A stretch of DNA of 64,000 bases, taken from contig OZ242260.1 in the NCBI GenBank assembly GCA_965207065.1, positions 832,001-896,000 of the forward strand, written 5' to 3'. A program made the translations under genes and the position numbers. This DNA is from a bacterium (GTDB lineage Bacteria > UBA8248). Shown here piece after piece: positions 1 through 50,858 of this stretch (position 1 is its first letter; each line of letters begins with the position of its first letter). The notes under the pieces were generated by a model. The model did not search any database and was not told where the DNA came from. It saw only the letters and a list, made by a program, of their open reading frames with translations.

Positions 1-904
1 GCCGATAGAAAAAGTAGATGGGTTCTATTTTCACCCCACCTCGCGCGATCGCGTACTGGCGCAGCGCCACGCGGACCCGGCCAAAACGCCCTGGACGCCG
101 TTGGACAAGCCACTGGCAGAGTGCAAGGTCACCCTGGTATCAACGGCAGGCATCTTCATGAAGAACGACGTTTCTTTCGATTACGAAAGAGAGCACCGCG
201 AGGGCACCTGGGGCGACCCCACCCACCGGGAGATTCCCAAGACGGCGGGCCAGCACGACGTGGAATATTCCCATCTGCACGTCGACACTTCGTTCTTGGC
301 CCAAGACAGGAACGTGTCCTGGCCGGTCGATATTTTCCTGGAATTCGAAAGAGAGGGGAAAATCGGCGCGCTGGCCGATACGCTCTATTCCATCATGGGC
401 TACATCCCGAACTTCAACCCGCTGGTGAAGCGCACGGCGCCCCTGATGATCGAGAAAATGAAAGAAGAAGGAGTCGACGCGGCCTTCCTCTATCCGGTCT
501 GACCCTTGTGCAACCGGTCCGGCGGACTGCTTCAGCGTGAAATCGAAAAGGCGGGGATCGCCACCGTCATCATCTCCAACGTGCCCGAGACCACCGAGCG
601 CGTCTGCGTGCCCAGGGCGGTGTTCGTCCAGTACCCCTTCGGGCGGCAACTGGGCGTCGTGGGCGATTACGAGGGACAGCGCCGGATTTGCGAGGACATG
701 GCGGCGCTGCTCGAAGAAGCAAAAGCGCCCAACGCCTACCGGCACCTGCCGTATGAATGGCCCGAACCGCCGGAGACCACCAAATGGCGTCCGGACGTGC
801 CGCCGCCCATCTTCACCGTCCGGCAGGCCAAAGAGGGTGGACACAATCTGCTGGATGACTTCAAGGACGAAGAGCGCGCCGCGTATACCGATGCAGAGCG
901 TTAG
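1..904 (+). CDS. Glycine/betaine/D-proline reductase selenoprotein B family (GrdB/PrdB-like); probable selenocysteine at TGA 500-502; 5' end lies at or beyond the window edge
   Basis: Frame is open from base 2. Track ORFs 101..502 and 506..904 are in frame across one TGA: LYPV-U-PLCNRSGGLLQREIEKAGIATV. The motifs LVSTAG, SHLHVD and PFGRQLG fit this family. Confidence 0.85.
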
Positions 905-964
905 GCGAGCACACGGGACGCGCCGAAAATCTTCCCGGTGCTATCGCACCTCAGCGCCGGAAAA

Positions 965-2374
965 TTATGCTTTCTCCAACCTGGCGAAATTGAGATAAAA
1001 CCGCCCGTCCACTTCCGTGCGCGAAAGCGTCTGCGCGAAATCTTTGGACTCCACCCGGTAGTCCCGCTCTTCTCCTCTCGCTCTGGTAACGCTCAAAAGC
1101 GTCTCCCCATCGAGGCCGCCGGGCGTCTCCTGCCCCATCAAGGAGAGGATGGTGGGGGCCAGGTCGACGTTCCCCGTCGGCGCATCCACCCGCGCGCCCG
1201 CCGGAAAAGCGGGGCCTGCGCCAATCAGGAAATTGCCTAACTCATACGGGCTGCACGAGCCGTGCGTTCCGCCGCTTCCCTTGTTGTTGACCGATGAATA
1301 CCCCCAGCCGGGTAGCGCGTCTTCGCGTTTCTCTCCCTCCAAGAATCCATCGCCCCACTGAAAGCCCATCAGCAAATCTGGCGCGCGTGGTCCACCGCAG
1401 CCCACAAGGCTCAAAGACATCGTGCCCGGCAACGCGCCTTCGGCTCCATCCCCGTCTTTGGAGAACAGCGGTCCCGCCCAGTCCTTCGTCCGCAAGAACT
1501 CTGCGAGCTCCAACATCGTGGTTTCCGATTCGCCGTAGAAAAGCGCGGCGCCCTCGCTGTGCGCCACCTGCCAACTCTCCCCGCGGACGGGGAGGTCCGC
1601 AAGTTCCGCTTCCAGGTCGATCATGCCCGCCGTCGTCACCACCCCGTGGTCGGAGAACAAAAGAAGGTTCGTCTGCGCCCAATCATCGCGCTCCGCTCGA
1701 AACCTCTCCCAGAACGCGCCGAACAGCCTGTCCACCCCCTCCAAAGCCTCGCGATGAACTGCACCTGCTGTGCCCTGGTGGTGCTGCGTGCTGTCCGGCT
1801 CGCTCAGGTGAACCACGAGCACGGCGGGTTCGAGTTCGGGGATGGCGTAATCGAGCGCCACGTCGAGCGCCCACGCGCAGCGTTCCAAATCAGGTTCGCC
1901 TGCGGCGGGGATTTCCCCCGCCTCCTCGATTCTTCCAATTTCTTCAGCGGGATGCGTCGCCTCAGGATGGATCAGACACGCAGGCCGGCCCGCGTTCCAG
2001 AGCCAGGCGGAACCGCTCGACGCGGCGCTGACGATGACGCCGCCGCCCACCCGCTCGAAAAAGGTGTCCCTCAAGAGCAGACGCCCGCCCATGGCGCGCT
2101 CCCAAGCGAGGAGGTGCTCGTAGCGGCCCGTGGTGATGGATTCGCCCAACTCGGGTGAAAAGAGGGAATTGCCCGGCAGGCCGTGCGTTCGGGGGTAGAC
2201 GCCGGTGGCCAGGCTCGAGACGCAAACCCTGGTCGAGGTGGGAAACGTGCTGCGGTGATTCTGGAACCAGACACCCCGCTCCGCCGCGGCGAGGAGATTC
2301 GGCGTTCTCTCCTCACTCAGGGCATCCGCGCGCAGACCATCGAACTGAATCGCTATTACGCGGGGCGTCGGCAT
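965..2374 (-). CDS. Alkaline phosphatase superfamily / type I phosphodiesterase-nucleotide pyrophosphatase
   Basis: FDGLRAD, FPTST, EPDSTQH, FSDHG, GTHG and VDLAPT motifs. Confidence 0.8.
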   Translation of the reverse strand: MPTPRVIAIQFDGLRADALSEERTPNLLAAAERGVWFQNHRSTFPTSTRVCVSSLATGVYPRTHGLPGNSLFSPELGESITTGRYEHLLAWERAMGGRLLLRDTFFERVGGGVIVSAASSGSAWLWNAGRPACLIHPEATHPAEEIGRIEEAGEIPAAGEPDLERCAWALDVALDYAIPELEPAVLVVHLSEPDSTQHHQGTAGAVHREALEGVDRLFGAFWERFRAERDDWAQTNLLLFSDHGVVTTAGMIDLEAELADLPVRGESWQVAHSEGAALFYGESETTMLELAEFLRTKDWAGPLFSKDGDGAEGALPGTMSLSLVGCGGPRAPDLLMGFQWGDGFLEGEKREDALPGWGYSSVNNKGSGGTHGSCSPYELGNFLIGAGPAFPAGARVDAPTGNVDLAPTILSLMGQETPGGLDGETLLSVTRARGEERDYRVESKDFAQTLSRTEVDGRFYLNFARLEKA

Positions 2375-2388
2375 GGTTGCTCATCCCG

Positions 2389-2421
2389 AAAAAAAGCGGC
2401 GGGGGATTCCGCCCCCGCCGC
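2389..2421 (-). terminator. Rho-independent terminator after the nitrile hydratase-like genes
   Basis: Stem gcggcggggg/cccccgccgc followed by a 7-U tract on the minus strand. Confidence 0.75.
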
Positions 2422-2442
2422 ATGGAAAAGTCGAGCCTTGGA

Positions 2443-3207
2443 TCAGGTGGCCTGCTCCGACGCCTGCATCGCTTCTTCGAGTTGTTCCGGCGTCAGGGGA
2501 TCGCCCACGCCGATCATCGAATCGCGCGTCACGAGCTGGAAGAGTTGCGCTTCGTTCCAGTCCTCGGTTCCCGCCGGACGCTGGGGGATGATGAGATAGC
2601 GGCAATCCGCGTTCGAGTCGATGACGATGAGCTCCACGTCATCGGGCGCATCGAAGCCCATGTCCTTCAAGGTTCCCCTCGGGTCCGACACGGCCTTCGA
2701 GCGATAGGGGAAACTCTTGTACCAGGTGGGGGGCTGGCCGAGGATTTGCCTCGGGTAGCACGAACACAGCGTGCACACCACCATGTAGCGGGTCGTGTCG
2801 GTATTCTCGAGAGCCACCACGCGGTTGATGCCCGTGGTGTCGACCCCCATCTCGCCGCAGGCGGCGTCCGCGTCCGCAAGGAGCCTCTCCTTGAAGCCCT
2901 CATCCACCCATGCGCGCGCGATGATGCGCGAACCGATGGCGGGGCTCTGGCCATAAATCTCCTCCACCGCGCGTCTCATCTCGTCGGTCGTGAGAAGGCC
3001 CTTCTCTCTGAGGACGTTCATCAGGGCCATCATGCGCACCTGGTAGTAGTCCAGATCGTGCTCGACCTGGGTCACGGCTCCTTCGCGGTAGGCGTCGTCG
3101 GACTGCATCCGCGCGTTGTGCGCCCCAGGGTCCTGGCTGTAGGTGTGGGGATGGTCGCCGTGATGGTGAACATGTCCGCCGTTGTGGTGATCGTGTGAGT
3201 GCGCCAT
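2443..3207 (-). CDS. Cobalt-type nitrile hydratase alpha / thiocyanate hydrolase gamma-like subunit with His-rich N-terminus
   Basis: VCTLCSCYP metal motif, ARAWVD and PTWYKSFPYRS; GAGGAG RBS before ATG 3207. Confidence 0.9.
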   Translation of the reverse strand: MAHSHDHHNGGHVHHHGDHPHTYSQDPGAHNARMQSDDAYREGAVTQVEHDLDYYQVRMMALMNVLREKGLLTTDEMRRAVEEIYGQSPAIGSRIIARAWVDEGFKERLLADADAACGEMGVDTTGINRVVALENTDTTRYMVVCTLCSCYPRQILGQPPTWYKSFPYRSKAVSDPRGTLKDMGFDAPDDVELIVIDSNADCRYLIIPQRPAGTEDWNEAQLFQLVTRDSMIGVGDPLTPEQLEEAMQASEQAT

Positions 3208-3245
3208 GGTGTGCTCCTCGCTCACGGGGGAACCGGTGGATTCGC

Positions 3246-3533
3246 CTAGACCGGCTCCAGCCAATGTTCATATATTTCGATATAGAGTTTGTCCTGTTTT
3301 TTCCCCGCCTCGTGATCCCAGAGATCGTTGATTTCGAACTCCACCCAGTAGAGTTCCCTGAGCGGCAGGCCGTCGCCGCCGTAGGCGAGATTCTCGGGGT
3401 TTTTGTATTTGCCGAAATAACGGTTGACGACGCCCGTCTTTCCCTTCACGAAATAAGTCGTCCGGTGGTGGCCGTCGGGGTACATCTCCTTGATGCGAAC
3501 CCTGTCGCCCACGCGGTAGCGGGTTTCCTCCAT
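3246..3533 (-). CDS. Nitrile hydratase beta C-terminal SH3-like domain (thiocyanate hydrolase alpha-like)
   Basis: YRVGDRVRI...GHHRTTYFVKGKTGVV...LYWVEF...IYEHWLEP. Confidence 0.85.
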   Translation of the reverse strand: MEETRYRVGDRVRIKEMYPDGHHRTTYFVKGKTGVVNRYFGKYKNPENLAYGGDGLPLRELYWVEFEINDLWDHEAGKKQDKLYIEIYEHWLEPV

Positions 3534-3616
3534 CGGAACATCCCCTTTGCAGTTGAATCGACTTGATCTGAAATACTTATCTGAATTTTACACCGCGAAG
3601 GCTCTTTGTCCAGCCC

Positions 3617-4633
3617 CTACTTCGCAAGTCCGTACACGCGCCTGGCATTCGTAGTGAGAATCATCTCCTGCTCCGCTTCCGAGAGGCGGTTCAGGCCCGG
3701 AATATCCCGCGCGGGCTGGTGATAGCCCATGTCCGCCGGATAGTCCGTGCCGTAGAGAATCCGCTCCGCCCCAAGCGTCTTCGCCGCGAACTCGAAGCAA
3801 TCCGCGTTGTGGATGATGGTGTCGTAATAGAAACGACCGAAATACTGCTCGGGGTCCTTCGCTCCGTGGACCTTGGGTTCCCTACGCTCGCCGTAGCCGT
3901 GCTGCCAGCGGCCCCGGATCCAGGGCACGAAGCCGCCCACGTGGGAGAGATAGAATTTCAGTTCCGGGAACCTGTCCATTACGCCGCCGAAGATGAGGCA
4001 CGCCACCGCAACCGTGGTGTCGAGCGGGTTTCCGATAAAATTCCTCAAGTAGAAATCCTGGAGGCGATCTCCACCGCCCAGCACGTTCGTGGGGTGCACG
4101 AACACAGGCATGTCGAGCGCCTCCGCCTTGGCCCAGAATACGTCCAGACCCGGATCGTCGAGGTTTTTTCCCGCCACGTTCGAGGCGATCATCACGCCGA
4201 GGTGGCCGTTCGCGCTTGCGCGCTCGAGTTCCGCCGCCGCAGCTTCCGGGTCCTGGAGGGGCACCGTGGCCATGCAGGAGAATTTATCGGGATACTCCCC
4301 CGCCAGCGCGCTCAGGCCGTCGTTCAGCGAAGCGGCCAACTCCTTGTTCGCTTCCGCCTCCAATGTATAGAGCGTCATGGCCGGGCCGATGGAGAGCACC
4401 TGATGCGCGACGCCCATCCGCTCCATGTCAGCGAAGCGCGGCTCAAGCTCATAATAAAGGGGCGTGAGCTTATTCCTGAGTTCCGAATCGCGCCCCAGAA
4501 CCTTTCCGCGCGTAATGAGCCACTCGCCGTGTTCGTCAGTTTCTATCGACGCCGTGCGGCCGAAGCGGCCCGCGCGCACGTCCGCGATGAACTGCCCGGG
4601 ATAGATATGTGTATGGGGGTCGATCGCCGTCAT
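3617..4633 (-). CDS. Amidohydrolase_2 family protein (ACMSD-like decarboxylase/hydratase)
   Basis: IDPHTH, FVHP, SHVGG and YGTDYP motifs; start taken at MTAID. Confidence 0.85.
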   Translation of the reverse strand: MTAIDPHTHIYPGQFIADVRAGRFGRTASIETDEHGEWLITRGKVLGRDSELRNKLTPLYYELEPRFADMERMGVAHQVLSIGPAMTLYTLEAEANKELAASLNDGLSALAGEYPDKFSCMATVPLQDPEAAAAELERASANGHLGVMIASNVAGKNLDDPGLDVFWAKAEALDMPVFVHPTNVLGGGDRLQDFYLRNFIGNPLDTTVAVACLIFGGVMDRFPELKFYLSHVGGFVPWIRGRWQHGYGERREPKVHGAKDPEQYFGRFYYDTIIHNADCFEFAAKTLGAERILYGTDYPADMGYHQPARDIPGLNRLSEAEQEMILTTNARRVYGLAK

Positions 4634-4718
4634 CTTTTTCTCTATCTTCTGCCGGGGGGAGGCCCTCCCGGGCCCCCTCACCGCACGTGAATCGAGTCGT
4701 ATTCGCCGCCGCTGGCTT

Positions 4719-5735
4719 TTACACGTCCAGCTTGTAGAGCTTCTTCACGTTTCCGTAGAGCATCTGTTCCTGCTCATCCGCCGAGAAGCGCGAAAGCCCC
4801 GGAATCTCCTTCGCCCCGGCCAGATAGCCCATGTCGAAGGGATAGTCCGTACCGTAGAGAATCTTGTCCACGCCGAGCGTTTTCACGGCGAACTCGAAGG
4901 AATCCGCGTTGTGGATGATGGTGTCGTAATAAATTTTTCCGAAATACTGTTCGGGGTCTTTTGCGCCGTGCACCTTGGGTTCCCTGCGCTCGCCGTAGCC
5001 GTGCTGCCAGCGGCCCCGGATCCAGGGAACGAAACCGCCCACGTGCGAGACCAGGAACTTGATGTTCGGGAAGCGATCGAACACGCCGCCGAAGATGAGA
5101 CAGGCGATGGATATCGTCGTGTCGAGCGGGTTGCCGATGAAGTTCCTCAGGTAATAGTCCTTGAGCCGGTCGTTGACGCCGATGACGTCCACCGGGTGAA
5201 TGAAAATCGGCACGTCGTGCTCACACGCCTTGGCCCAGACGACGTCGAGCGCGGGGTCATCGAGATTATTTCCCGCGATGTTCGAGCCGATCTGACAACC
5301 CAGGTGGCCGTTTTTCACCGCGCGGTCGAGTTCCGCCGCCGCGGCTTCGGGGTCCTGGAGCGGAATCTGCGCCATGCACAGGAAACGCTCGGGGTGTTCT
5401 TTCGTGAGCGCGGTCAGCGCATCGTTCAGCGATGCGGAGAGTTCCCTGTTCAGGCCTGCGTCGAGCGCATAGTGCGTCATCGGCGGAACGACGGAGAGAA
5501 TCTGAATGTCCACGTTCTGGTTGTTGTCCATGTCGCTCAGGCGCATCTCGACGTCATAGGTTTCTTTCGGCAGCGGGTTCTTGTGAATCCGCTCCTCGCC
5601 GAGAACGGTGTTTTTCGTGACGAGCAGTTCCCACGGGTCGCCCGCTTCGATGGTGACGGCGTCGCCGAAACGGCCCTGGCGTACGTCTTCGATGAAACTC
5701 TCGGGAGCGATGTGGGCATGAGGGTCGATGATCAC
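4719..5735 (-). CDS. Amidohydrolase_2 family protein, tandem paralog of 3617..4633
   Basis: IDPHAH, FIHP, SHVGG and YGTDYPFDM motifs. Confidence 0.85.
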   Translation of the reverse strand: MIIDPHAHIAPESFIEDVRQGRFGDAVTIEAGDPWELLVTKNTVLGEERIHKNPLPKETYDVEMRLSDMDNNQNVDIQILSVVPPMTHYALDAGLNRELSASLNDALTALTKEHPERFLCMAQIPLQDPEAAAAELDRAVKNGHLGCQIGSNIAGNNLDDPALDVVWAKACEHDVPIFIHPVDVIGVNDRLKDYYLRNFIGNPLDTTISIACLIFGGVFDRFPNIKFLVSHVGGFVPWIRGRWQHGYGERREPKVHGAKDPEQYFGKIYYDTIIHNADSFEFAVKTLGVDKILYGTDYPFDMGYLAGAKEIPGLSRFSADEQEQMLYGNVKKLYKLDV

Positions 5736-5932
5736 CTGGACTTCTCCTTATCGGTACGTGAATGAGGATAAACCTAATTTCGCTCAGAAATAGATTCTTG
5801 GATTTTTCGAGGGCCGATTATGCACACTTTGCCGCCGCCGCGCCAGAGCGCGGGGTCATGATCCCGATTGTTGCGCAGCGCAATCGAGACGACGCGCATG
5901 CCGGTCAGCGTCTGTGTTCCGGCCGCGCCGTT

Positions 5933-7168
5933 TTAAAACGTCTTGTCGATCACGATGCGCACGTTCTTCTCTCCCACCCGCACGGGGCGCGATGTGCGAC
6001 CTTCGAGATCGCCTGCGCCCGCGGGACCCGCCGAGCCGTCCGCGTCGAGACGCGCCGAGAGCGTAACCATTCCCTCGAACGGCACGCCGGGGATCATCAC
6101 GTTTCGCTTCGATACCTCGAACTTGAGCGGGAAACGGGGGTTCGCCACCCGCACGACCGCCAGCGGCGGGCCTCCGCCTCCCTTGCGCGCGATCAGGAAC
6201 AAGACGGGCTTGCCCTGGGCCTTGGCCTGCAAGGCGGGGGCAATCTCTATCGTACCCGAAATCACCTCTCCCGCCCCTTGCGGCTGTGCGGGTATGGGCG
6301 CTGCTTCTCCTTTTGCTTCTTGTGAGAGAACGATCTCCACGCCTCGCGCACCCACCTGGACCGGCCCGCGTGCGCCGCCGAAAATATCGCCCGGCTGCGT
6401 CCCGACTTTTCCGTCCCCATCGAGCTTGGCGATGAGGCGGACCTCACCTGCGAACGCCACCCCCTGGAGCATCACGTTTTGCTCGCTCATGGTGAAATCC
6501 AGGGGAAAACCGGGATTCAGAATCCGCATGACCGCCAGGGGCGGGCCGGGTTGCTTCCCGCGCGCGATGATGAAAATCGCCGCCTTGCCCTTCGCCTTTT
6601 CCTTAAGTTTGGGGGCGACGCGGACCACGCCGCGAATCGTCTTGCCGCTCCCGGTCGATGGCGCCGCTTCAGGGGGCGGTGCGGGTTTTGCGGGAGATTT
6701 TTTCGCGACCTTCGGAGGAGGAGCGGTGCCGATCTGATCGATCACCACGTCCACGTCTTTCGCGCCCACGGCAACCGGGCCTGCGGCCCGCCCCTCGAAA
6801 TCGCCCTGGACCAGCGGCCCAGGAACGCCGTCCGCATCGAGGCGGGCGCGCACGCGGACGCGGCCCGCGAATTTCTGGCCGCGAATCATCATATCGTCTT
6901 TCGTGATGACGTATCGGTAGGGAAACCGCGTCTCCACGAGGCGCTGCACCGCCAGCGGCGGGCCGCCTCCCTCGCGCTCCAAAATGATGAACAACGTGCG
7001 CGTGCGCCATGCCTTTACGGGCAGCTTCGCGCTCATCCGAATGGTGCCCGAAACGGATTCTTCCGGCGGGCCGAGTTCGGGAAGGAGATCGCAACCGCTC
7101 AGCATCACGGAGAGACAAATCGCAGTGAGAGCGACGCAAAAATTTTTGAATATGCGCTTCATGGGCAT
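5933..7168 (-). CDS. Lipoprotein with three tandem CcmI/CycH C-terminal-like domains
   Basis: LSGC lipobox; three copies of SGTI..LFII..GPPLAV.R..FP..F......MM..G..F.G.V...ARLD.DG...GD..G. Confidence 0.65.
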   Translation of the reverse strand: MPMKRIFKNFCVALTAICLSVMLSGCDLLPELGPPEESVSGTIRMSAKLPVKAWRTRTLFIILEREGGGPPLAVQRLVETRFPYRYVITKDDMMIRGQKFAGRVRVRARLDADGVPGPLVQGDFEGRAAGPVAVGAKDVDVVIDQIGTAPPPKVAKKSPAKPAPPPEAAPSTGSGKTIRGVVRVAPKLKEKAKGKAAIFIIARGKQPGPPLAVMRILNPGFPLDFTMSEQNVMLQGVAFAGEVRLIAKLDGDGKVGTQPGDIFGGARGPVQVGARGVEIVLSQEAKGEAAPIPAQPQGAGEVISGTIEIAPALQAKAQGKPVLFLIARKGGGGPPLAVVRVANPRFPLKFEVSKRNVMIPGVPFEGMVTLSARLDADGSAGPAGAGDLEGRTSRPVRVGEKNVRIVIDKTF

Positions 7169-8094: not shown

Positions 8095-8111
8095 GAAAGG
8101 AAGTTTCCGCT

Positions 8112-8864: not shown

Positions 8865-9703
8865 GCAACGCTCCCCGAGGCCGCCGCGCTGCCCGCATGG
8901 TCGCGTTCCTCCCAGGAATCCAGGTGCGCGCGCAGGGATTCCGCACCGGATGCCGAATCGAGGTATGCGCCCACGGCGTCCTCGTCGATGTCGTAGAACG
9001 GATGGCACCCCCCGGGCCGCGCGCCCCCCGGCGCGTGCACTACCGCCTGCACCATGAAGGCGGGAACCGCCGTTCTGTCGGGTTTCTCGACGAAAAACGC
9101 TGTCTCCTCGATGCGTTCCGCCGTCAGGATCACCGACTCGGCCGCCCGGGACATCAGCACGTCCTCGAACGCGCCGCCATCTATCCGCGCGTTTCCCTCC
9201 GCATCGGCATACGTCACATGGAGTACGGCGAACCGGGGCCTGATTCGGGGAACCATATAGGTCGACACGCCCGTGTAGGGGTCTTTCACCTGCCGGAAAC
9301 CCGTAAGCGCCGCCACGTCGCTCCCGTCCAGACCCGCCACGGGCTGACTCGGAAGACCGTATGCGGAGGCCCTGAGACCCGCGATGACCGTGGAGCAGGC
9401 GTGTTCGACCGCCTGCACGCGGCCTTCCTCCACGCTGAGGCGGTAGGAGGGCGCCAGGCCGAAGAGGTTTTCGAAGCCCACATAACCCGTCTGCGTCTGC
9501 GCTACGGCCCCCGCCGCGCATAGCAAATCGACATCGTAGGCGCCGGCCGTCTTAACGAGGCGCAAATTCTCCCGCCCCCGGCGGGCGAGTTCGCGGACGA
9601 AAGCGGCGGGAATTCTCGTGAGCGAGTTTCCGCCCAGGGCGAGCATATCCCCGTCCTGCACAAGGGCCGCCGCCTGCGTGAGGGACATGATTTTGCCTGC
9701 CAT
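8861..9703 (-). CDS. CoA-transferase-fold subunit A (GctA/AibA-like)
   Basis: VQDGDMLALGG, DLLCAAG, ADAEGNA and GARPGGCHPFY motifs. Confidence 0.85.
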   Translation of the reverse strand: MAGKIMSLTQAAALVQDGDMLALGGNSLTRIPAAFVRELARRGRENLRLVKTAGAYDVDLLCAAGAVAQTQTGYVGFENLFGLAPSYRLSVEEGRVQAVEHACSTVIAGLRASAYGLPSQPVAGLDGSDVAALTGFRQVKDPYTGVSTYMVPRIRPRFAVLHVTYADAEGNARIDGGAFEDVLMSRAAESVILTAERIEETAFFVEKPDRTAVPAFMVQAVVHAPGGARPGGCHPFYDIDEDAVGAYLDSASGAESLRAHLDSWEERDHAGSAAASGSVA

Positions 9704-11930: not shown

Positions 11931-11957
11931 CGAAAACCACGGCATTCTGATACAACC

Positions 11958-11989: not shown

Positions 11990-12037
11990 ATTTTCACATT
12001 CGCGGCGTAAGCCGAGCCTCTTTGGTTGGGATTGAAT

Positions 12038-34373: not shown

Positions 34374-34646
34374 ATGACGGAGCGCGCTGATTTTCGCCAG
34401 TTCTACCGCGACGCCCATAAAGTGGACCTGCTCACCGACCGCGAGAAAATCCTGATGGGCCTGGCCATCGCCATCGTGCGCAACTGCCAGCCGTGAGTGG
34501 ACCGCCGCCTGGCGGACGCCGGGAAAGCGGGCCTCTCCGAAGAGACGCTCGACGCCGCATTCGACCTGACCGCCGCCGTCATGGCGGGAGTCGCCCAGAG
34601 CATGAACCAGCGCTACAAGGCTTCTCGCAACCAGGGCGATAGCTAG
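34374..34646 (+). CDS. AhpD/carboxymuconolactone decarboxylase-like probable selenoprotein (CxxU, TGA 34494-34496), 90 aa; absent from the ORF track
   Basis: GAGGAG RBS; MTERADFRQFYRDAHKVDLLTDREKILMGLAIAIVRNCQP-U-VDRRLADAGKAGLSEETLDAAFDLTAAVMAGVAQSMNQRYKASRNQGDS*. Confidence 0.85.
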
Positions 34647-34658
34647 AGATCGCCCCTG

Positions 34659-35210
34659 ATGAAAGACTGGTTCAAGCGATTCACGGATTTCGACGACCCG
34701 AACAAGCTCATGCCCTGGAAGGACAAAAGCCCCGAACCCCAGGGGGAGGAGCCTGAGGACCGCCCTGAGATACCCATCAAGCCGGGCTGGTATTTCGTGA
34801 TGTACTTCATCATGGGCGTGGGCTTCGACACCCTGTTCCCCACCTACGCCTTCCCGGAGAACGTACGCTTCACGCTCGGGGTCGGGCTGGTGATTGCAGG
34901 CGCCGTCCTGAATTCGACCTCCCTCGTCTGCTACAGGGACACCCGCACGAACCACGAGACGAACAAGCCCGCGCACGTCCTCATCACGGAGGGGCCCTAC
35001 CGCTTCTCGCGGAATCCTATCTATCTCGGCTACATGTGCCTCTTTCTGGGACTCGGGATTTTCCTCAACAACTTGTGGATATTCGTTCTGGGCGCGCCGC
35101 TCCTCGCCACGGTGCAGGTGGCCATCATCGCGCGCGAGGAGGACTACCTCGCGGAGAAATTCGGCGAGGATTACGGCGTATACTGCCAGAGCGTGCGCCG
35201 CTGGCTGTAG
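34659..35210 (+). CDS. Isoprenylcysteine carboxylmethyltransferase / PEMT family membrane methyltransferase
   Basis: LITEGPYRFSRNPIYLG and EEDYLAEKFGEDY..Y...VRRW motifs. Confidence 0.9.
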   Translation: MKDWFKRFTDFDDPNKLMPWKDKSPEPQGEEPEDRPEIPIKPGWYFVMYFIMGVGFDTLFPTYAFPENVRFTLGVGLVIAGAVLNSTSLVCYRDTRTNHETNKPAHVLITEGPYRFSRNPIYLGYMCLFLGLGIFLNNLWIFVLGAPLLATVQVAIIAREEDYLAEKFGEDYGVYCQSVRRWL

Positions 35211-40601: not shown

Positions 40602-40625
40602 GAAACCAATCTCCAGGCAGGCGGC

Positions 40626-41417: not shown

Positions 41418-41488
41418 GGTATTTCTCCTTTCGTTTCGCCACTTTGGCCCTTTGGCCGACTCTTTTGTCCTTTAGGCGATGAAAAGTT

Positions 41489-42910: not shown

Positions 42911-43738
42911 GTCGTCCTCCTTGGAGGCTGAGTTTTCCACTACCTCCACGTGTGCTACCACCTCATCGACGAAGCGGGGCTCCCAGCCATCGGACACAAG
43001 GCCGTCCTCGACGAGAAGATGATAATAACGCCCCAGGCCCTCCAGTTCCTCGTCGCCCACGTCGTAGCGGATGCACTCGGTGAGATAACACCACGCCGTG
43101 TTCCTGTCGACGCCGGGCGGAAGCGCGCCGTTCACGATCTCCTCTATCCGTCCGACGCCCTCTTTTTTCGCGTTCTGCAAAAGCGCTGCGGCCTCGGCGT
43201 TTCCCGCCCCCTGACGGAACACCCAGAGCGCATACACGAAGGGGAGTCCCGTGAAATTCTGCCACTCCTCGCCCAGGTCGAGCACGTAGTGATCACCCGG
43301 CGGTTCGCGCAGCGCGTTGTCGCCGATGAGCAAGAAGGCGTCGAGCGACTCGTCCGCCCGCGGTGGTTTGATCGGGTCGATTGGGACGAACTCGGGCTCC
43401 GCCCCCCAGCGGTGTTTCAGATAGACGCGCGCCATGTTCGTCGCGGCGAGCGACCAGCTATCCAGCCCCACGCGACGCAGCGAATCAGCCGGTTTCCGGC
43501 AATAGAGGCGGATGCTCTCCACCGGGCCTTTGCTCGCGATGCCCACACCGGGCGCGAAACGCGCGCCGCGCATCCCGAAAAGGGCGAACGAGGAGACGAG
43601 CGCGCCGTCGAGCTCTCCGCTCTCAAGCATTTCCGCCAGTTTCGAGGGGGGTTCGACGAGGAGTTCGACCGCCGGGTTTCCTTCCAGCGCAATCGTGAGG
43701 GGTCTGGCGTTCAGGAAGGGAACGGTGCCGAGTTTCAT
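42911..43738 (-). CDS. mqnA: Chorismate dehydratase (futalosine pathway); no stop codon before the amidase
   Basis: PFLNARPL, GPVESI, LLIGDNAL and DLGEEW..FTGLPFVYALW motifs. Confidence 0.9.
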
Positions 43739-43746
43739 GGTGGTGC

Positions 43747-44886
43747 TCAGGCGTGAACTGCCCATTGATCTCCCTGGCGCGTGACTTCCCGGTAGAGCGT
43801 GTCGCGCTCGATGGGCTCGCGCCCCACCTCGCGGATGAGGCGGCGGATGTCGTTCACGGTGAGTTCGTGCGGCGTCTTGGCGCCCGCCATGTGGTAGATC
43901 TTCTCCTGGACGACGGTGCCGTCCAGATCGTCCACGCCGAAGCGCTGCGAGATTTGCGCGACCGGCTGGCCCACCATGATCCAGTACGCCTTGATGTGGG
44001 GAATGTTGTCGAGCAGAAGGCGCCCGACAGCGTAGTTCCTGATGTCGAGCATCCCGCCCGTGGAGGGGATGTCGTCCATCTGCGTGTTCTCGGGATGAAA
44101 CGCGAGCGGGATGAAGGTGGTGAACCCGCCGGTCTCGTCCTGCAGGTCGCGGAGCCTGAGCATGTGGTCCACGCGATCCTCGTTCGATTCCACGTGGCCG
44201 TAGAGCATGGTGCACGTACTGCGGATGCCCTTGTTGTGGGCAATACGGTGGATCTCCAGCCAGTCCTCGCCCGAGTGCTTGCCCTTGCAGATTTTAGACC
44301 GCGTGGGTTCGGCGAAAATCTCCGCGCCGCCGCCCGTGAGCGAACCGAGCCCCGAGCGCACCAGGTGATCCAGCGTCTCCTCCACGCTCATCTTGGCAAT
44401 GTGATCGGCGAGAAAGCGGATCTCCGTGGCCGTGAAGACTTTGAGGTGCAGTTGCGGGTGAATCTCCTTGATGCCCTGGATCATCTCCAGATAGTAGTCG
44501 AAGGGCAGATCGGGATGAAGACCGCCCACCATGTGGAACTCGGTGCGGCCCCGGCCCAGCGTCTCCGCCATCTTGAAGATTTCTTCCAGCGAATAGGCAT
44601 AGGCGTCCTGCTGGCCTTCCTTCTTGCCGAACGCGCAGAACTTGCACGCCTTCCACAGCACGCAGATGTTCGAGTAATTGATGTGGCTGTTCACGTTGTA
44701 ATAGGTGCGGTTCCCGTGTAAGCGCTCGCGCACGACGTTCGCCAGGAAGCCTACGGCGTTCACGTCCTCGGCTTCGTAGAGGCGCACGCCCTCCTCGAAG
44801 GAAAGGCGCAGCCCCGCCTCGACTTTTTCGAGGATATCGCCCAGAGGGCCTCTCTGGACGCGCGAGCGCATGAAGTCGCGGTTCAT
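43747..44886 (-). CDS. mqnE: Aminofutalosine synthase (radical SAM)
   Basis: NYSNIC...CKFCAF (one extra pair of residues between the first two Cys), HMVGGLHP, HIKAYW and EKIYHMAGA motifs. Confidence 0.92.
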   Translation of the reverse strand: MNRDFMRSRVQRGPLGDILEKVEAGLRLSFEEGVRLYEAEDVNAVGFLANVVRERLHGNRTYYNVNSHINYSNICVLWKACKFCAFGKKEGQQDAYAYSLEEIFKMAETLGRGRTEFHMVGGLHPDLPFDYYLEMIQGIKEIHPQLHLKVFTATEIRFLADHIAKMSVEETLDHLVRSGLGSLTGGGAEIFAEPTRSKICKGKHSGEDWLEIHRIAHNKGIRSTCTMLYGHVESNEDRVDHMLRLRDLQDETGGFTTFIPLAFHPENTQMDDIPSTGGMLDIRNYAVGRLLLDNIPHIKAYWIMVGQPVAQISQRFGVDDLDGTVVQEKIYHMAGAKTPHELTVNDIRRLIREVGREPIERDTLYREVTRQGDQWAVHA

Positions 44887-45034
44887 GGTTCACCTTCTAC
44901 TTTTTCGTCTCATCGGAGAATCAATCCAGCCGGTGACGCACGGGCGCATTCTGGAGGCTGGAGGGGGGGATGTCAACGCGGGGTGGGGGTGGTACGCAGC
45001 CCACACATACTCTCCTTCGCTCCCTTACAACCCA

Positions 45035-45913
45035 TCACTCGCCGAAAAAATACTTCACGCCGAGCATCACGGAGAAGTGGTTCATGCCGCTGATCGTGGT
45101 GAAGTTGGAGAGGCCGGGGACCGGGTGGAAATCGTAGTCGCCTTTGACGTCCTCCATGTCGCCCACCATGGAGTAGGTGAGCTTGAGGCCGAGCAGCACC
45201 TTGTCGCTCGCGCGGTAGTCGAGGCCGGCATGCAGATGCGCGGACAAGACGGTGTCGGTCAGGTCCTCGTTCTGGCGGCCGTCGTACTGCTCGGGCATAT
45301 CGCAATCCATTGCCGGATTCTTGCACGAGTAGCGCGCCTCGAAATACACGCCCGAGAGCTCGACGAAGGAAACGCCCACGCCCGCGCCCACGTAGGGCGT
45401 GAAGCGGCTTCCCGCGATGGAAAAGTCGTAGTAGGCGTTCAGCGAGAGGGTGCGCGTCGTCAGATCGTCAATACTGGCGTTGGCCTCGCTTTGATAATTG
45501 CTCACCGGGCGGGCCATGATGCGCGCGCCGTCCAGATAGGTGATGTCGGTGAATTTCTGCTCGACGTCGTTTTTCCGCTGGGCCAGCCCCAGTTCCAGGC
45601 GAAAATCGCCGAAGGTGCGGCCGACGGAAATCTCGAGCGCCGCGCCGTCGTCCGCATCCAGATCATAGAACCACCGGTAGCCCTCGGGCGCGCCGCCGGC
45701 GAGGTGGCTGCAGTCGTCTTCGGGGTAGCAGATGTTGTCCCGGTTATGGCCCGCCTGCTCGATCCCCGAAGCCTTGTTGATCCCGATGCTCGCTCCCACG
45801 TACCAGCCCGAAGGCTTCGCCTCCTGGGCGGCGCTCGCACCCGCCGCGACGAGAATCGCGCATACCGCCAGCACAGCTATGATGACACAGAATTTCCCGG
45901 GTGATGCTCTCAT
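45035..45913 (-). CDS. Outer-membrane beta-barrel protein (opacity/P44-like)
   Basis: Signal peptide; GWYVG, NAYYDF, FTPYVGAGVG and a terminal GVKYFF. Confidence 0.8.
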   Translation of the reverse strand: MRASPGKFCVIIAVLAVCAILVAAGASAAQEAKPSGWYVGASIGINKASGIEQAGHNRDNICYPEDDCSHLAGGAPEGYRWFYDLDADDGAALEISVGRTFGDFRLELGLAQRKNDVEQKFTDITYLDGARIMARPVSNYQSEANASIDDLTTRTLSLNAYYDFSIAGSRFTPYVGAGVGVSFVELSGVYFEARYSCKNPAMDCDMPEQYDGRQNEDLTDTVLSAHLHAGLDYRASDKVLLGLKLTYSMVGDMEDVKGDYDFHPVPGLSNFTTISGMNHFSVMLGVKYFFGE

Positions 45914-46018
45914 TTCGTCCTCTCCTGCTCGATGTTGGATGATTCGGATACCCTCGTGGTGAACGATTCCATAGCCCGGGGGATTAAGCGCGTCATGAGC
46001 AATCGATACACAACGCCA

Positions 46019-46882
46019 TCAGGCCGGATTTTTCGAAAGCCGCTCTATCTTCACCTCGGTGGTGAGCTCCGAGTCGCCGTTTCCCCGGAACACGCCCCGG
46101 CTCGGGGGCACGTCCGCGTAATCCCGGCCCACCGCCACGCGGACGTGGCGCTCGTCTCCCTCGGTGTTGTTCGTCGGGTCGAAGCCGACCCACCCCACGC
46201 CCGGAAACCAGCACTCCACCCAGGCGTGGCTCTCGCCCGTGGCCTCGCCTTCGATTTCGGGCCCCAGGTAACCCGACACGTAACGGCACGGAACCCCCCA
46301 GCCGCGCACGATCGAGGCCATCACGTGCGCGTAGTCCTGGCAGACGCCCCGCCCGGTCTCCAGGATGTCCTCGATGGGCGAATCGACCTGGGTATGGCCC
46401 GGTATGTACTCGAAGACGTCGTTGAGTTTGGCGCAGAGCTCGCGCGCGCCCACGAGGGGGTCGTCCCCCGGAGCGATGTCGTGTTTCGCCACGAACCTAT
46501 CGAGCGCGGGACTCGGGCGAGCGAAGAGGCTCGGGTGCGTCAGCGGCCAGAGCTCGGGCGTGCGGACGGCGCTGCGAAGCGCCTCCGAAGCGCCGGGTTC
46601 GAGCCCCTCGGGGGCGGAGGCCAAGGGACCCACCTCCACGCGCGAGTGCGCCCGCACCTCGAAGCGCGGGTGCGGGCGGGCGCGATCCAGAAAATGCGCC
46701 GTGTTGCCGAACGGGTCGGTGAACTCGAAGAACCGGCCCTCGGGGTCGGTGCGCAGCGAGAACTCATGCACGGTCTGGGCGCGGTCGCGAAGCGGGCACA
46801 AGTACAGCGTCATCACCGATGTCTGAACGGGCGTCTCGTAATCGAAGCGTATGGCGTGCTCGACCGTGTAGCTCACTATCAC
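46019..46882 (-). CDS. Transglutaminase family protein
   Basis: GVCQDYAH, RYVSGY, SHAWVE, FDPTN and GRDYADVPP motifs. Confidence 0.93.
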   Translation of the reverse strand: MIVSYTVEHAIRFDYETPVQTSVMTLYLCPLRDRAQTVHEFSLRTDPEGRFFEFTDPFGNTAHFLDRARPHPRFEVRAHSRVEVGPLASAPEGLEPGASEALRSAVRTPELWPLTHPSLFARPSPALDRFVAKHDIAPGDDPLVGARELCAKLNDVFEYIPGHTQVDSPIEDILETGRGVCQDYAHVMASIVRGWGVPCRYVSGYLGPEIEGEATGESHAWVECWFPGVGWVGFDPTNNTEGDERHVRVAVGRDYADVPPSRGVFRGNGDSELTTEVKIERLSKNPA

Positions 46883-47853
46883 GCCGGGATCTCCTCGGCC
46901 AGTGAGCGGTGGACGTAAGCCGCCATCGCCAGGTCGTGGAGCTCACGGACGTCGCCCCCTATCGCGCGGAAGAATGCGCCCGCATCCACCTCGCCGGAAC
47001 CCGTCGCATCCATTTCGATGGCCGCCGTGAGTCGAAGCGCCATCCGGTGCGGCGGCGCGAGGGGAAAACGCGCGCCGAGCGGGTCGATTCCGTTCAGCAT
47101 TTCCTCGATGCGCTGCAGCGAGAAACGGAGCGAGCGGGGAAGCTCGGGATTGCGCGTCAGGAAACCGAGCACTTCTTCTTCGAGAATCTTCATCGAGTGG
47201 CGGCGGCAATAGATTTCATACGCGCGGCATATATGAAGCAAATCCGCCCACGAAAGCGCGGCGACGCCCCCCCTCGGATGCGCGAAATCGACCCATGCCT
47301 CAAGGAGTGCGGCCTGGTGCTGCGCCCGCTCGATGAAGCGGCCCAGTTCCAGAAAGCGCCAGGCATCGTCGCGCGGCATCGTCGAGTGCACCACGCCCGC
47401 GAACAGCCGCATGCGGTCGATGATATCGAGCGCGAGCCGAGCCGGCGCCTGCTCCCATTCCCGGGCGAAATTCACCTCGCGCATCCAGAGATAGCCCTGG
47501 TTGAGCCGCGTCCATATCGCAAGCGGAAGCTGCGCACGGACGCGCTGTCCGTTCTCGCGCGCCTGACTCCAGCACGAGAGGATGGAATCGGGGTTCGCTC
47601 CCTCCTCCACGAGGCTGCCCGCAAGGGTATAGGCGTCGGGAATCAGATACACCTCGGCCTCCTCAGCGCCCGCCGTCGCGCCGGGCGGGGGCTGGCCCAG
47701 CGACCGATAAATCGCCGCCCAACCGACGGCCAGTTCATCGGCGGGCCGGTCGACAAGCCGGTTGAGCTGGTATTCCAGAAGACGCGCCGTCTGTTCGACA
47801 CGCTCGACGTAGCGGCCCATCCAGTAGAAATCTGCGGCGACCCGAGCCAGCAT
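46879..47853 (-). CDS. Alpha-E domain protein (DUF403)
   Basis: MLARVAADFYWMGRYVER, LGRFIERA and PRSLRF motifs. Confidence 0.92.
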   Translation of the reverse strand: MLARVAADFYWMGRYVERVEQTARLLEYQLNRLVDRPADELAVGWAAIYRSLGQPPPGATAGAEEAEVYLIPDAYTLAGSLVEEGANPDSILSCWSQARENGQRVRAQLPLAIWTRLNQGYLWMREVNFAREWEQAPARLALDIIDRMRLFAGVVHSTMPRDDAWRFLELGRFIERAQHQAALLEAWVDFAHPRGGVAALSWADLLHICRAYEIYCRRHSMKILEEEVLGFLTRNPELPRSLRFSLQRIEEMLNGIDPLGARFPLAPPHRMALRLTAAIEMDATGSGEVDAGAFFRAIGGDVRELHDLAMAAYVHRSLAEEIPA

Positions 47854-47998
47854 GATTCCTCTCCTTCATCATCCAGTGATTCCCGCAGGGGAGAACACAT
47901 GAGAAGCGGCGCGAGGCCGCGGGGGCCCCAACCTCATTTTATAACAACCCCCTTCGCCGAAACCAGATTTTTTCCGTAGTGGTCAATCCCGACCGAAT

Positions 47999-48317
47999 GG
48001 GGGTTGTGGAAAAAAATCCCATAAAGCAAGGAATGGATTTTTCAATCGACATACGCATTATGAAACCACTCCCACATTTACAGAGCGCCAAACAACCACT
48101 CCCCCCTTGAGGGGGAGTCAGTGAACTGAGGGCGAAAGCCCGAAAGTGAACTGGTGGGGGGTATAATTCGGAATGGCAAGAAAACGCATTTTACCCCCCA
48201 CCGATTCAGCCTTCGCAAATACCGCTCGGCTTCATCGACTCCCCCTCAAGGGGGGAGTGAACTTCAAAAGCGTGCACGCAACCCAAAATTGCTTCCCGGG
48301 TCTTTTGCAACAACCCC
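47999..48317. repeat. MITE-like element enclosing a perfect 23-bp inverted repeat pair (48097-48119 / 48237-48259)
   Basis: Ends gggggttgtggaaaaa and tcttttgcaacaacccc; inner cactccccccttgagggggagtc / gactccccctcaaggggggagtg. Confidence 0.8.
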
Positions 48318-48374
48318 GTATGTCAGTCATATATGTCTGACCCTAAATCCGGGTCGGCAATCAAAATAACACGC

Positions 48375-48402
48375 GGGGGCGGACACATAGGTCCGCCCCT
48401 AC
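48375..48402 (-). repeat. Single GTAG-type REP palindrome
   Basis: Reverse strand reads gtaggggcggacctatgtgtccgccccc. Confidence 0.75.
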
Positions 48403-48413
48403 CCTACTCTACC

Positions 48414-49889
48414 CTACCTCTCCAGCACCCAGATGTCCTTACACCCCCCGCCCTGGCTCGAATTCACCACGAGGCTGCCGCGCTTGAGCGCGACGCGGCA
48501 CAACCCGCCCGGAACCACGTGCTGCTCCTCGCGCCCCTGCAACACGAAGGGCCGCAGGTCCACGTGGCGCGGCTCGATGCCCCCATCGACGAAGCAAGGC
48601 GAGCGCGAGAGCGCGAGCGTGGGCTGTGCGATGAAGTTCGCAGGATCCGCGCGCAGCCGCTCGGCGAATTCCGCACGCTCCGCCGCCGTGGAGTGGGGGC
48701 CGACCAGCATCCCGTAGCCGCCCGAACCGCCGACTTCCTTCACCACCAGGTCGCCCAGATGCTCCAGCGTATAGGCCAGCCCCTCGGGTTCGCGGCAAAG
48801 GTGCGTCTCGACGTTGGCGAGTATCGGCTCCTCGCCCAGGAAATAACGGATGATTTGAGGCACGTAGGCGTAGATGCTCTTATCGTCCGCCACGCCGGTC
48901 CCCGGCGCGTTGGCGAGCACGAGGTTCCCCGCACGGTAGGCGTGGAAAAGCCCCGCCGCGCCCAGGAACGAATCGCCCCGGAACGTGACGGGATCGAGAA
49001 AATCATCGTCCACACGGCGGTAGAGCACGTCGATGCGGCGAAGCCCCGCCGTCGTGCGCGCGTACAACCCGGCGTCGCGCACGAGCAGGTCCTGGCCCTC
49101 GACGAGGTCGACGCCCATCTCGCCCGCGAGGAAGGCGTGCTCGTAGTAGGCGGAGTTGAAGATGCCGGGCGTGAGCACCGCCACGTTCGGCTCCCTCGGC
49201 GAGTGGCCCAGGGAGACGAGCGTGGAATAGAGGTGTTCGGCGTAATCGGCCACCTCGCGCACCCGGTGCTCGCGGTAGAGCCTGGGCAGCACGTCCTTGA
49301 TGGCGTTTCGGCAGGCAAGCATGTAGGAGACGCCCGAGGGTACGCGCAGGTTGTCCTCCAGGACGGCGAACCCATCGTGGGTGCGGACGATGTCGGTCCC
49401 GCACACGGCGACGTAGACGTCGTGAGGCACATTCAGCCCGCGCATCTCCATGCGGTATTGCGGACAGCCGAGCACGACGTCGATGGGAACGACCCCCTCG
49501 CGCAGGCACCGGCCCTCGTGATAGACGTCTTTCAAAAACATGTTGAGCGCCATCAGGCGCTGCTTGAGACCGCGTTCGACGTGGTCCCACTCCGCCGCCG
49601 TGAGCAGGCGCGGCACGCAGTCGATGGGGATGATCCGCTCGGTGGCTTCCTCGGCGTCGAGCACCGTGAAGGTGATGCCGTCATAGAGAAAGCGGCGGTA
49701 GACGCCCTCCTGGAGTTTGTCCAGATCCTCGGGCGTGAGTTCGGCGAGCGCGGTGTTCAGCCGCCCGCAAGACTCACGCGGACTGCCCTCTGAGTCGAAC
49801 ATCTCATCGTAAAAGCGCGAATCGAGATCGTATCCCGAAAAAGGCCCCTCGTCCTGCGCCGAGGCGAGCGGCTCCGCCCCCTTGTTCAT
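48414..49889 (-). CDS. Circularly permuted type 2 ATP-grasp protein
   Basis: LEDNLRVPSGVSY, NAPGTGVADDK, GSGGYGM and VVNSSQGGGCKDIW motifs; GGAGG RBS. Confidence 0.93.
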   Translation of the reverse strand: MNKGAEPLASAQDEGPFSGYDLDSRFYDEMFDSEGSPRESCGRLNTALAELTPEDLDKLQEGVYRRFLYDGITFTVLDAEEATERIIPIDCVPRLLTAAEWDHVERGLKQRLMALNMFLKDVYHEGRCLREGVVPIDVVLGCPQYRMEMRGLNVPHDVYVAVCGTDIVRTHDGFAVLEDNLRVPSGVSYMLACRNAIKDVLPRLYREHRVREVADYAEHLYSTLVSLGHSPREPNVAVLTPGIFNSAYYEHAFLAGEMGVDLVEGQDLLVRDAGLYARTTAGLRRIDVLYRRVDDDFLDPVTFRGDSFLGAAGLFHAYRAGNLVLANAPGTGVADDKSIYAYVPQIIRYFLGEEPILANVETHLCREPEGLAYTLEHLGDLVVKEVGGSGGYGMLVGPHSTAAERAEFAERLRADPANFIAQPTLALSRSPCFVDGGIEPRHVDLRPFVLQGREEQHVVPGGLCRVALKRGSLVVNSSQGGGCKDIWVLER

Positions 49890-49972
49890 ACAAGCCTCCA
49901 TCACACATTGAGTCACGAACAGGTTAACTGCGTTCGGGGCTTCGTTCAAGTTTTATGTTAGTGGCGATGCCT

Positions 49973-50459
49973 GTAGGGACAGGTCGCGACCTTGGGCCGC
50001 TCACAAGAACGGCCCCGACCCGGAACTGTTGAAAAAGCCCTTTCCGCCTCATCCTGAGTTGCGGCGAAGCCGCGTATCGAAGGATGCCCTCCTCGCCTCG
50101 GCGCGAGGCGTTCTACTCCCCTCGCCCTTCGATACAAACGCTCCTTTCTCAGTCGCGTTTTACCTTCGGCGGCTACTCAGGGTGAGGTCGATTCGGTATC
50201 CAAAAATGACGAGGGTTACGCGCTCGCTAGCAGAACCGGGTTTTTCAACAACCCCTTGAGGGTCGGGCCGACCCACTCCCCACTTGGTCGGGATGTCAAT
50301 ACTCGTGTAGGTAGCACTCCCTTCTTGGGAACGCTACATATTATGCGACCCGCATAGAGAAGACGAAAAGGCAGGGCCGCATAATATGCGGCCCCTACAA
50401 AACCGCCTACTCTCTAGTCGCGTAAAACACTCGTTTATCAGGGCTTTTTCAACAACCCC
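49973..50459. repeat. Cluster of nested repeats: MITE-like ends, ctcatcctgag/ctcagggtgag doublet and GTAG REPs
   Basis: ctgttgaaaaagccc at 50026; tttttcaacaacccc ending at 50255 and 50459; REP at 50374-50398. Confidence 0.75.
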
Positions 50460-50498
50460 TCCCCGGTCGTCAAACGCTCCCTCATCAGTCGCGTTAGA

Positions 50499-50858
50499 CT
50501 ACTCACTCAGGACCTTGTCGGCCCATTCGACCAGGGCCACCAGGTCCGGCGGCGTCACGAAACGCGCGTTCTTGCCTTCGAGATCGGCTTCGGTGACCGC
50601 ACGGGCCCGCGCGCACGCCGTTCATATGTTGACGGGAATCGCGTGCTCAACAGTCTGCGCGAACGTCTCCCTGAGAGGCGGCCAGCCGACGGGCGTCACC
50701 GCGTTCATCACCTCGTCTTTCATGAGGTTCGCCGCCTCGCCCAGCAGAAACAGCCGCACCTCATGACCGGCCTCCGCAAATGCGTTCGCGTGCAGAAAGG
50801 CGAAGGACGCCTTGGTCGATTCGTCCGACCCCCAGGGACTCTTGATGAGGACTTTCAT
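50499..50858 (-). CDS. DsrE/DsrF-like probable selenoprotein (UxxC, TGA at 50624-50622), 119 aa
   Basis: AAGGAGG RBS; ...VRLFLLGEA...IPVNI-U-TACARARAVTEADLEGKNARFVTPPDLVALVEWADKVLSE*. Confidence 0.88.

Follow-up and report, generated by a model that had tools for sequence, protein, structure and literature searches.

Do in-frame TGA codons at redox motifs, each followed by a small hairpin with a GG loop, encode selenocysteine (Sec), and if so, does the hairpin belong to one bacterial lineage only? These questions are raised by a stretch of 64,000 nucleotides (nt) of contig OZ242260.1 (positions 832,001 to 896,000 of the forward strand; assembly GCA_965207065.1) from a bacterium of the GTDB lineage UBA8248, which is called the window here at its full length. 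Three genes in the window carry an internal TGA, and the original prediction held that these TGAs, at positions 500 (+), 34494 (+) and 50624 (-), each occupy a Cys position of a CxxC-like motif. All three are indeed in frame and each motif retains one Cys. Judging from comparative sequence evidence, we consider it highly probable that the three TGAs are Sec codons of known selenoprotein families, read by the standard bacterial pathway. The predicted genes and codons are as follows, with window coordinates and with U standing for Sec in protein motifs.

Site 1 gene, 1 to 904 in the window with the start codon 2 nt before it, + strand: predicted PrdB/GrdB-like selenoprotein, approximately 301 amino acids (aa), U168.
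Site 1 predicted Sec codon, TGA 500-502, + strand: UxxC, in the context AAFLYPV-U-PLCNRSGG, motif V-U-P-L-C.
Site 2 gene, 34374-34646, + strand: predicted small CMD/AhpD-like selenoprotein, 90 aa, U41.
Site 2 predicted Sec codon, TGA 34494-34496, + strand: CxxU, in the context VRNCQP-U-VDRR, motif C-Q-P-U.
Site 3 gene, 50858-50499, - strand: predicted DsrE-like selenoprotein, 119 aa, U79.
Site 3 predicted Sec codon, TGA 50624-50622, - strand: UxxC, in the context IPVNI-U-TACARA, motif U-T-A-C.

On both sides of each TGA the coding potential was best, out of all six frames, in the frame of that TGA, and each of the three proteins matches a Pfam domain above its cut-off. The families concerned, PrdB (UxxC), CMD-domain/AhpD-like proteins (CxxU) and DsrE-like proteins (UxxC), are all catalogued as selenoprotein families (Sargasso Sea 2005, PMC1088965; family table of PMC13188914). 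The site 1 protein passed the Pfam GRDB model (37.8 bits, cut-off 22) and the U of its UxxC motif falls on the family Sec position, but it scored below the cut-offs of the PrdB equivalog TIGR04483 (residues 29-253 aligned across U, 132.1 bits, cut-off 300) and of the selenoprotein B subfamily TIGR01918 (53.1 bits, cut-off 65.45). We file it as PrdB/GrdB-like, and not as PrdB, because only the general Pfam model was passed. The site 2 protein matched Pfam CMD (33.5 bits, cut-off 23) over residues 9-77, spanning U41, and like the catalogued CMD/AhpD-like selenoproteins it has Sec at the second Cys of an AhpD-type CxxC motif for which Cys forms exist. It differs from them in being a very short, 90-aa single-domain form that lies below every NCBIfam cut-off for AhpD-type (seleno)proteins, to which it has weak matches (for example NF041047, 21.9 bits against 110). 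The site 3 protein matched Pfam DsrE (PF02635; 48.9 bits, cut-off 22.7) over residues 12-117, spanning U79, and shares with DsrE-like selenoproteins a UxxC motif that is CxxC in homologs, but at 16 bits against the TusD/DsrE equivalog models (cut-offs of 89-92) it is not a TusD/DsrE equivalog and stands alone.

The TGA is strictly conserved among relatives. The aligned codon is TGA in 30/30 relatives' loci for site 1, in 38/38 matches for site 2 and in 17/17 loci for site 3, although these counts overstate the number of events because the relatives are not independent. A search of 36 genomes of the same family found site 2 orthologs in every one of them, with identities as low as 62%, and in public genome contigs of other lineages the codon is TGA at 66 of 68 loci and TGC at the remaining two (L359 and L360). 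Cys counterparts, which the original prediction had proposed to look for, therefore exist for site 2, and they were also found for the other two sites: a homolog of site 1 with 36% identity (L361, a single locus) has C-I-V-C at the position, and ten of the 12 full-length homologs of site 3 have C-G-A-C (one has W and one has R). In the alignments, each TGA falls on the predicted redox-active residue of a known family of thiol-oxidoreductase type; orthologs retain it, and more distant homologs have Cys in its place.

Public gene calls end all three genes at the TGA. For site 1, all 38 matches among these calls are 166-177 aa long and end there, and many database homologs of site 3 are 78-aa fragments that do the same. 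These calls would fit an explanation in which the TGAs are real stops or nonsense mutations of split or dead genes and the hairpins are by-products of G+C-rich coding sequence. Such an explanation would also fit the folding z-scores, which are not significant, and the passing of approximately half of control sites under a broad model of the Sec insertion sequence (SECIS), both of which are described below; moreover, another TGA in this genome, that of an AEP primase gene at genome position 336074, does look like a private nonsense mutation. We nonetheless regard true stops at the three sites as extremely unlikely, as the TGA and the frame downstream of it are kept in every ortholog examined, even at 62% identity and in other lineages, the coding signal is the best of six frames on both sides, domains run across the codon, Cys and TGA correspond at redox motifs, and the full Sec machinery is encoded.

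That machinery was found in a genome consisting of one 4.48-Mb contig with 59.5% G+C. It comprises a tRNA-Sec gene (75.9 bits; annotated by ARAGORN as tRNA-SeC with anticodon tca), a selB gene of full length (386 bits, covering positions 1-580 of the 581 in the profile), selA (579 bits) and selD (334 bits), the last of which itself has one in-frame TGA. A lack of selB or selC, which the original prediction had named as grounds for doubt, can be set aside, with both full-length selB and tRNA-Sec being present. In the gene set, which was produced with a home-made caller and a codon-usage model, TGA is otherwise the main stop codon and ends 1444 of 3201 genes. Because of this stop-codon usage, a reassignment of TGA to a standard amino acid (Trp or Gly) is already refuted, and we consider it vanishingly unlikely. 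A W at the position in one DsrE-like database homolog (P0006) speaks for reassignment, but this is probably a gene call made under another code; furthermore, in-frame TGAs with domain support are confined to approximately 52 sites, mostly at Cys-type redox or active-site positions, and tRNA-Sec, selA, selB and selD are all present.

If the three TGAs are Sec codons, SelB carrying Sec-tRNA would bind a small hairpin just downstream of the UGA, whose apical loop would offer a G approximately 18-23 nt from the U of UGA, as in Escherichia coli fdhF, and SelB would then bring Sec to the ribosome, competing with release factor 2. The candidate hairpins are the following.

Site 1 hairpin, 515-529, + strand: 6-bp stem CGGTCC/GGACTG with loop GGC.
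Site 2 candidate SECIS, 34502-34530, + strand: upper stem 34508-34513/34518-34523 (CCTGGC/GCCGGG) with loop GGAC; lower stem 34502-34505/34527-34530.
Site 3 hairpin, 50598-50613, - strand: stem CGCGCG/CGTGCG with loop GGCC.

The three GG-loop hairpins that had been quoted in the original prediction are present letter for letter, and each can be extended to 6 bp. The spacings given there (18, 17 and 14 nt) are correct if one counts from the end of the codon up to where the loop begins, and counted from the T of TGA the loop offsets are 21, 20 and 17 for sites 1, 2 and 3, respectively. All three hairpins begin 8-13 nt after the TGA, inside the open reading frame (ORF), and their energies as bare hairpins are -6.0, -9.4 and -8.0 kcal/mol. 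The hairpins of sites 2 and 3 are present in the minimum free energy (MFE) fold of the 61-nt region. No Rfam family reached its gathering score anywhere in the window.

Site 2 has the clearest signature of a conserved RNA element. Its upper helix is 100% paired in 33 distinct orthologous sequences, in which two pairs are changed on both sides (C-G to U-A and G-C to A-U, all of these double changes within the family coming from one clade) and one U-G pair is changed to U-A. The covariation score was reached by none of 500 shuffles. In other lineages, 40 of the 68 loci have the stem CCTTGC/GCAAGG (GCGAGG in L320 and GCAAGA in L335) with loop GGAC or GGAT, which constitutes a further compensated pair (G-C to U-A) beneath the same loop, independent of the changes within the family. 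Across 23 distinct orthologous sequences the site 1 stem hardly varies, with 98.6% pairing; the third codon positions in it (alignment columns 18, 21 and 30) are invariant and most flanking third positions vary. These invariant synonymous positions point to a probable constraint at the RNA level, which is weaker evidence than covariation. At site 3, 92.8% of stem cells are paired in 14 distinct sequences.

We compared the three sites with background sites in the same genome. Under a narrow definition of the hairpin (a stem of 5 bp or more that includes no more than one GU pair and begins 8-20 nt downstream of the codon, and a loop of 3-4 nt opening with GG), it is present after 15 of 1444 true TGA stops, after 384 of 36676 TGAs that lie out of frame in coding sequence and after 110 of 10461 in-frame Cys codons, that is approximately 1% in each case. 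A broad definition (spacer 5-25, loop 3-8) is satisfied by 4.0-5.7% of control sites and is the fairer background, corresponding to roughly 1e-4 for three sites out of three, because the narrow definition was tailored to the three sites once they were known. The presence of the hairpin at all three sites is far above background, even allowing for the post hoc definition, and the caveat of the original prediction that equivalent hairpins might be as frequent after true stops does not apply here (approximately 1% against three of three). A wider rule (perfect stem, energy of -8 or lower, G among the first two bases of the loop, loop at 14-30 nt from the T) picked out 27 of 50 Sec sites, compared with 49 of 1444 true stops (3.4%) and 104 of 3000 Cys codons (3.5%).

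The hairpins also resemble published bacterial elements. In the bacterial SECIS consensus (the bSECISearch model of Zhang and Gladyshev 2005, as summarised in section 5 and the Fig. 2 legend of PMC13188914), the loop has 3-9 nt with a G in its first two positions, mostly as G[G|U], the stem has 4-16 bp, the apical loop lies 16-37 nt from the UGA, and the MFE is -7.5 or lower. The window hairpins lie in coding sequence right after the UGA, as in that consensus, with loops of 3-4 nt that start with GG and upper stems of 6 bp. The spacings at sites 1 and 2 (18 and 17 nt) are within the published range, and site 3 has 14 nt, or 17 nt from the U, the counting convention not being stated in that summary. 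Compared with the published energy threshold, which is for the element, the hairpins at sites 1 and 3, taken on their own, are of weak to moderate strength. The SECIS of E. coli fdhF has U17, G23 and U24, of which G23 and U24 are the critical bases of the loop, and its upper stem-loop is 11 nt from the UGA (PMC8659212). Sites 1 and 2 are similar in having the loop G at approximately position 22-23 from the U of UGA, and the site 2 stem likewise starts 11 nt after the UGA. They differ, as does site 3, in that no stem has a bulged U and the loops (GGC, GGAC and GGCC) have no U after the G. The tetraloop of fdhF is GGUC, and this loop also occurs in eight AhpD/CMD-like Sec genes of the present genome.

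Several observations weigh against these hairpins being SECIS elements and, with that, against the TGAs being Sec codons. Folding of the three regions, as the original prediction had suggested, gave 61-nt folds that are not more stable than those of dinucleotide shuffles (z-scores of +1.26, -1.11 and +1.43), and the site 1 hairpin is missing from the MFE fold. No covariation was detected at site 1 among the 23 distinct sequences, and that at site 3 is weak, amounting to one compensated cell and equalled by 110 of 500 shuffles. The stems at sites 1 and 3 could have been kept in part by conserved amino acids (R-S-G-G-L and A-R-A-R-A, respectively). The loop at site 3 is 14 nt after the TGA, short of the published 16-37 nt when the count begins after the codon. 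Among paralogs of the site 1 gene, the closest one (genome 1874086-1874961, + strand, 68% identity) keeps the TGA (1874584) and lacks the GGC hairpin. Finally, an approximation of the full published model was satisfied by 46 of 51 Sec sites, and by 278 of 600 true stops (46%) and 364 of 600 Cys codons (61%) as well; all three window sites pass it, sites 1 and 3 via a different hairpin. Because approximately half of the controls pass, a fit to the broad published model is weak evidence in a genome of this G+C content. SECIS-like structures have been reported to rise with G+C content (PMC12013277), with which the control pass rates agree.

In the site 1 paralog mentioned above, the region downstream of the UGA folds as a longer stem starting 3 nt after it, and scans for perfect hairpins and with the model were negative; its SECIS may be atypical. 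Cys-type CMD paralogs were considered as a control within the family, of which one in ten has CxxC, without a downstream hairpin of 5 bp or more, a single case being too few for comparison.

The original prediction went further and proposed a SECIS consensus specific to this lineage. In that case the lineage would have a minimal SECIS of its own (a 5-6 bp stem and a GG-initial loop), distinct from those of other bacteria and matched to a specialised SelB. The genome-wide data contain some support for this, in that 17 of the 18 narrow positives among 226 coding-filtered TGAs are Sec genes, and loop positions at Sec sites are tightly grouped at 17-28 nt from the T. Among the 50 Sec sites first analysed, 43 have a perfect hairpin, whose loops start with GG (17), GU (13), AG (7) or other bases (6). 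However, only 18 of 52 Sec sites carry the strict GG form, with 14 others fitting the same definition with a GT loop, and loops outside GG and GU include AGGU, AGAA and CGGGAUUU. Nine of the 17 GG loops come from a single paralogous family, AhpD/CMD, where GGTC encodes a conserved Leu-Gly. A G[G|U] start in a loop of 3-9 nt is also the general consensus as summarised in PMC13188914, and the site 2 hairpin is kept with a GGAY loop in records titled as other phyla (Entotheonella, Binatia, Deltaproteobacteria, Syntrophobacterales and Eisenbacteria among the titles). The idea of a lineage-specific consensus is therefore largely refuted, and we consider it very unlikely. The hairpins are of the general bacterial SECIS type and their shared GG loop is a common G[G|U] feature. 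With the families, the mechanism and the hairpin type all in print, there is nothing biologically new in the three genes themselves.

The description of the organism as selenoprotein-rich, on the other hand, is borne out by the whole genome. In-frame TGA candidates numbered 513 after a first coding filter and 226 after a stricter test that demanded the best of six frames on both flanks. We scanned 166 of the 226 (164 plus two added back) against Pfam, in windows of 70 aa either side, leaving 58 low-margin candidates without a nearby Cys and two others outside the scan. Family support was obtained for approximately 52 candidate Sec genes: 45 from Pfam, four from NCBIfam, SelD, one DsbA-like gene counted by its motif alone, and one gene with a coenzyme A (CoA)-transferase fold counted by Pfam and conservation. 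The number is a lower bound because 60 candidates were left out, and it rests on the home-made gene caller and filters. At the 45 Pfam sites, the domain spanning or abutting the U is CMD (10), UGSC (8), OsmC (5), AhpC/Prx (4), GRDB (3), Deiodinase-like (3), Glutaredoxin (2), Rhodanese (2), PTP/BLH-phosphatase-like (2), or GRDA, DsrE, Rdx, thioredoxin, DUF3179 and DSBA (one each). Paralogous expansions of Sec genes in the genome comprise 13 AhpD/CMD-like and eight UGSC-family members. FdhA is the commonest bacterial selenoprotein family according to BSepDB (as given in PMC13326102); none of the ten matches here to the formate dehydrogenase alpha subunit has an in-frame stop. The ten genomes with most selenoprotein genes in BSepDB have 46-63 each and include three metagenome-assembled genomes filed under UBA8248, named Nitrospinota, Nitrospinaceae and Nitrospinae, with 54, 50 and 48 genes (PMC13326102, Table 2). 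With approximately 52 candidate Sec genes in 4.48 Mb, the present genome is among the richest reported.

Other in-frame TGAs outside the window were not counted as Sec codons. An AEP-TOTE primase domain (genome 335862-336284, - strand; TGA at 336074) is matched across the TGA with a Pfam E-value of 9.5e-57, but four homologous stretches in three relatives (77-91% identity) have no stop at the position. We rejected this TGA as a Sec codon, a nonsense mutation private to this genome or an error in sequencing seeming likelier. At genome position 2762771 (+ strand) an alignment to DUF507 ends right at an in-frame TGA, midway along the profile (positions 28-94 of 182); this may be a split gene, a read-through or two genes. 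A self-BLAST search for Cys paralogs, in which 1016 loosely filtered TGA windows were compared with all six-frame ORFs, was dropped as noisy: in repeated DNA, shadow frames put R, G or W opposite the TGA, and of the 13 candidates that had Cys approximately five were credible.

The original prediction had also suggested that the hairpin could be used to find new selenoprotein families genome-wide. This is upheld as regards precision, provided that the coding filter is applied. The strict GG hairpin was positive in 18 of the 226 coding-filtered candidates, and 17 of these are Sec genes, including the one with a CoA-transferase fold; the remaining positive, at genome position 2735907, has no family match. 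It is not upheld as regards sensitivity, as only approximately 35% of Sec sites are recovered and about two thirds are missed. In our estimate the chances are about even that a two-sided coding test together with a compact, perfect hairpin, whose G[G/U] loop lies approximately 17-28 nt from the U, detects Sec almost specifically in this lineage and helps to outline a selenoproteome with at least two families (a CoA-transferase-fold alpha subunit and TIGR01244/PF04273) that were not found in the catalogue text.

The first of these is a CoA-transferase-fold (PF01144) gene at genome 3021495-3021917 (- strand, outside the window) with an in-frame TGA in T-E-H-A-U-A-S-V. All 23 orthologs, which come from 22 relatives, share the TGA. 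No stop occurs there in a group of paralogs with 38-59% identity, whose member in the same genome (window positions approximately 9188-9607, - strand) has Cys. A hairpin of 7 bp with a GGC loop begins 15 nt downstream of the TGA. The second family consists of two paralogs of TIGR01244/PF04273 (DUF442, PTP-fold sulfurtransferase-like) at genome 1354485-1354850 (+ strand) and 4140381-4140767 (- strand), also outside the window, with the TGA at the active-site position of H-C-x-x-G-R (V-H-U-K-x-x-G-R-A-G). All 53 matches, in 31 of 61 genomes searched, have the TGA, and the hairpins of the pair have the CGGGAUUU loop. Neither a CoA-transferase selenoprotein nor a TIGR01244/PF04273/DUF442 selenoprotein was found in the text of a 2026 review, as far as it was accessible, or in a literature search.

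Returning to the window, neighbouring genes gave no functional link between the three genes. The site 1 gene is preceded by two MFS transporter genes and an amidohydrolase gene, and a phosphodiesterase is also among its neighbours. A domain scan of three upstream and four downstream genes revealed no PrdA-type or other proline-reductase partner, the search for prdA being limited to these neighbours. Close to this gene, at 2443-3533 (- strand), genes with nitrile hydratase alpha and beta-C-terminal domains adjoin amidohydrolase genes, and the nitrile hydratase alpha-like protein has a sub-threshold match to the ribosomal-peptide leader family PF14407 (37 bits, cut-off 48). A gene for a membrane methyltransferase of the PEMT/ICMT family (34659-35210, + strand) starts 12 nt after the site 2 gene, whose protein weakly resembles, in NCBIfam, the AhpD-type domains of selenoproteins fused to methyltransferases (MduS; ArsM/AhpD). 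The two adjoining genes may be a split version of the methyltransferase-AhpD pairing. No TusBCD/DsrEFH partners were found among the site 3 neighbours tested. We also considered the three genes as a genomic cluster and rejected this. A Poisson estimate for three Sec sites in such a span is P of approximately 0.02 per span, and three Sec genes in 50 kb are not unusual here, as the 52 sites include seven triples that each fit within 50.2 kb. The three genes belong to a large selenoproteome and have no functional relation to one another.

For annotation, reading through the three TGAs would bring back the redox-active residue that is cut from public calls of 78 aa and approximately 167 aa. In a G+C-rich genome such as this one, a GG or GU hairpin after an in-frame TGA is meaningful only when a narrow definition is combined with conservation. 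If both the CoA-transferase-fold family and the TIGR01244/PF04273 family are real and uncatalogued, selenium chemistry would extend to CoA-transferase-fold enzymes and to PTP-fold enzymes of sulfur transfer.

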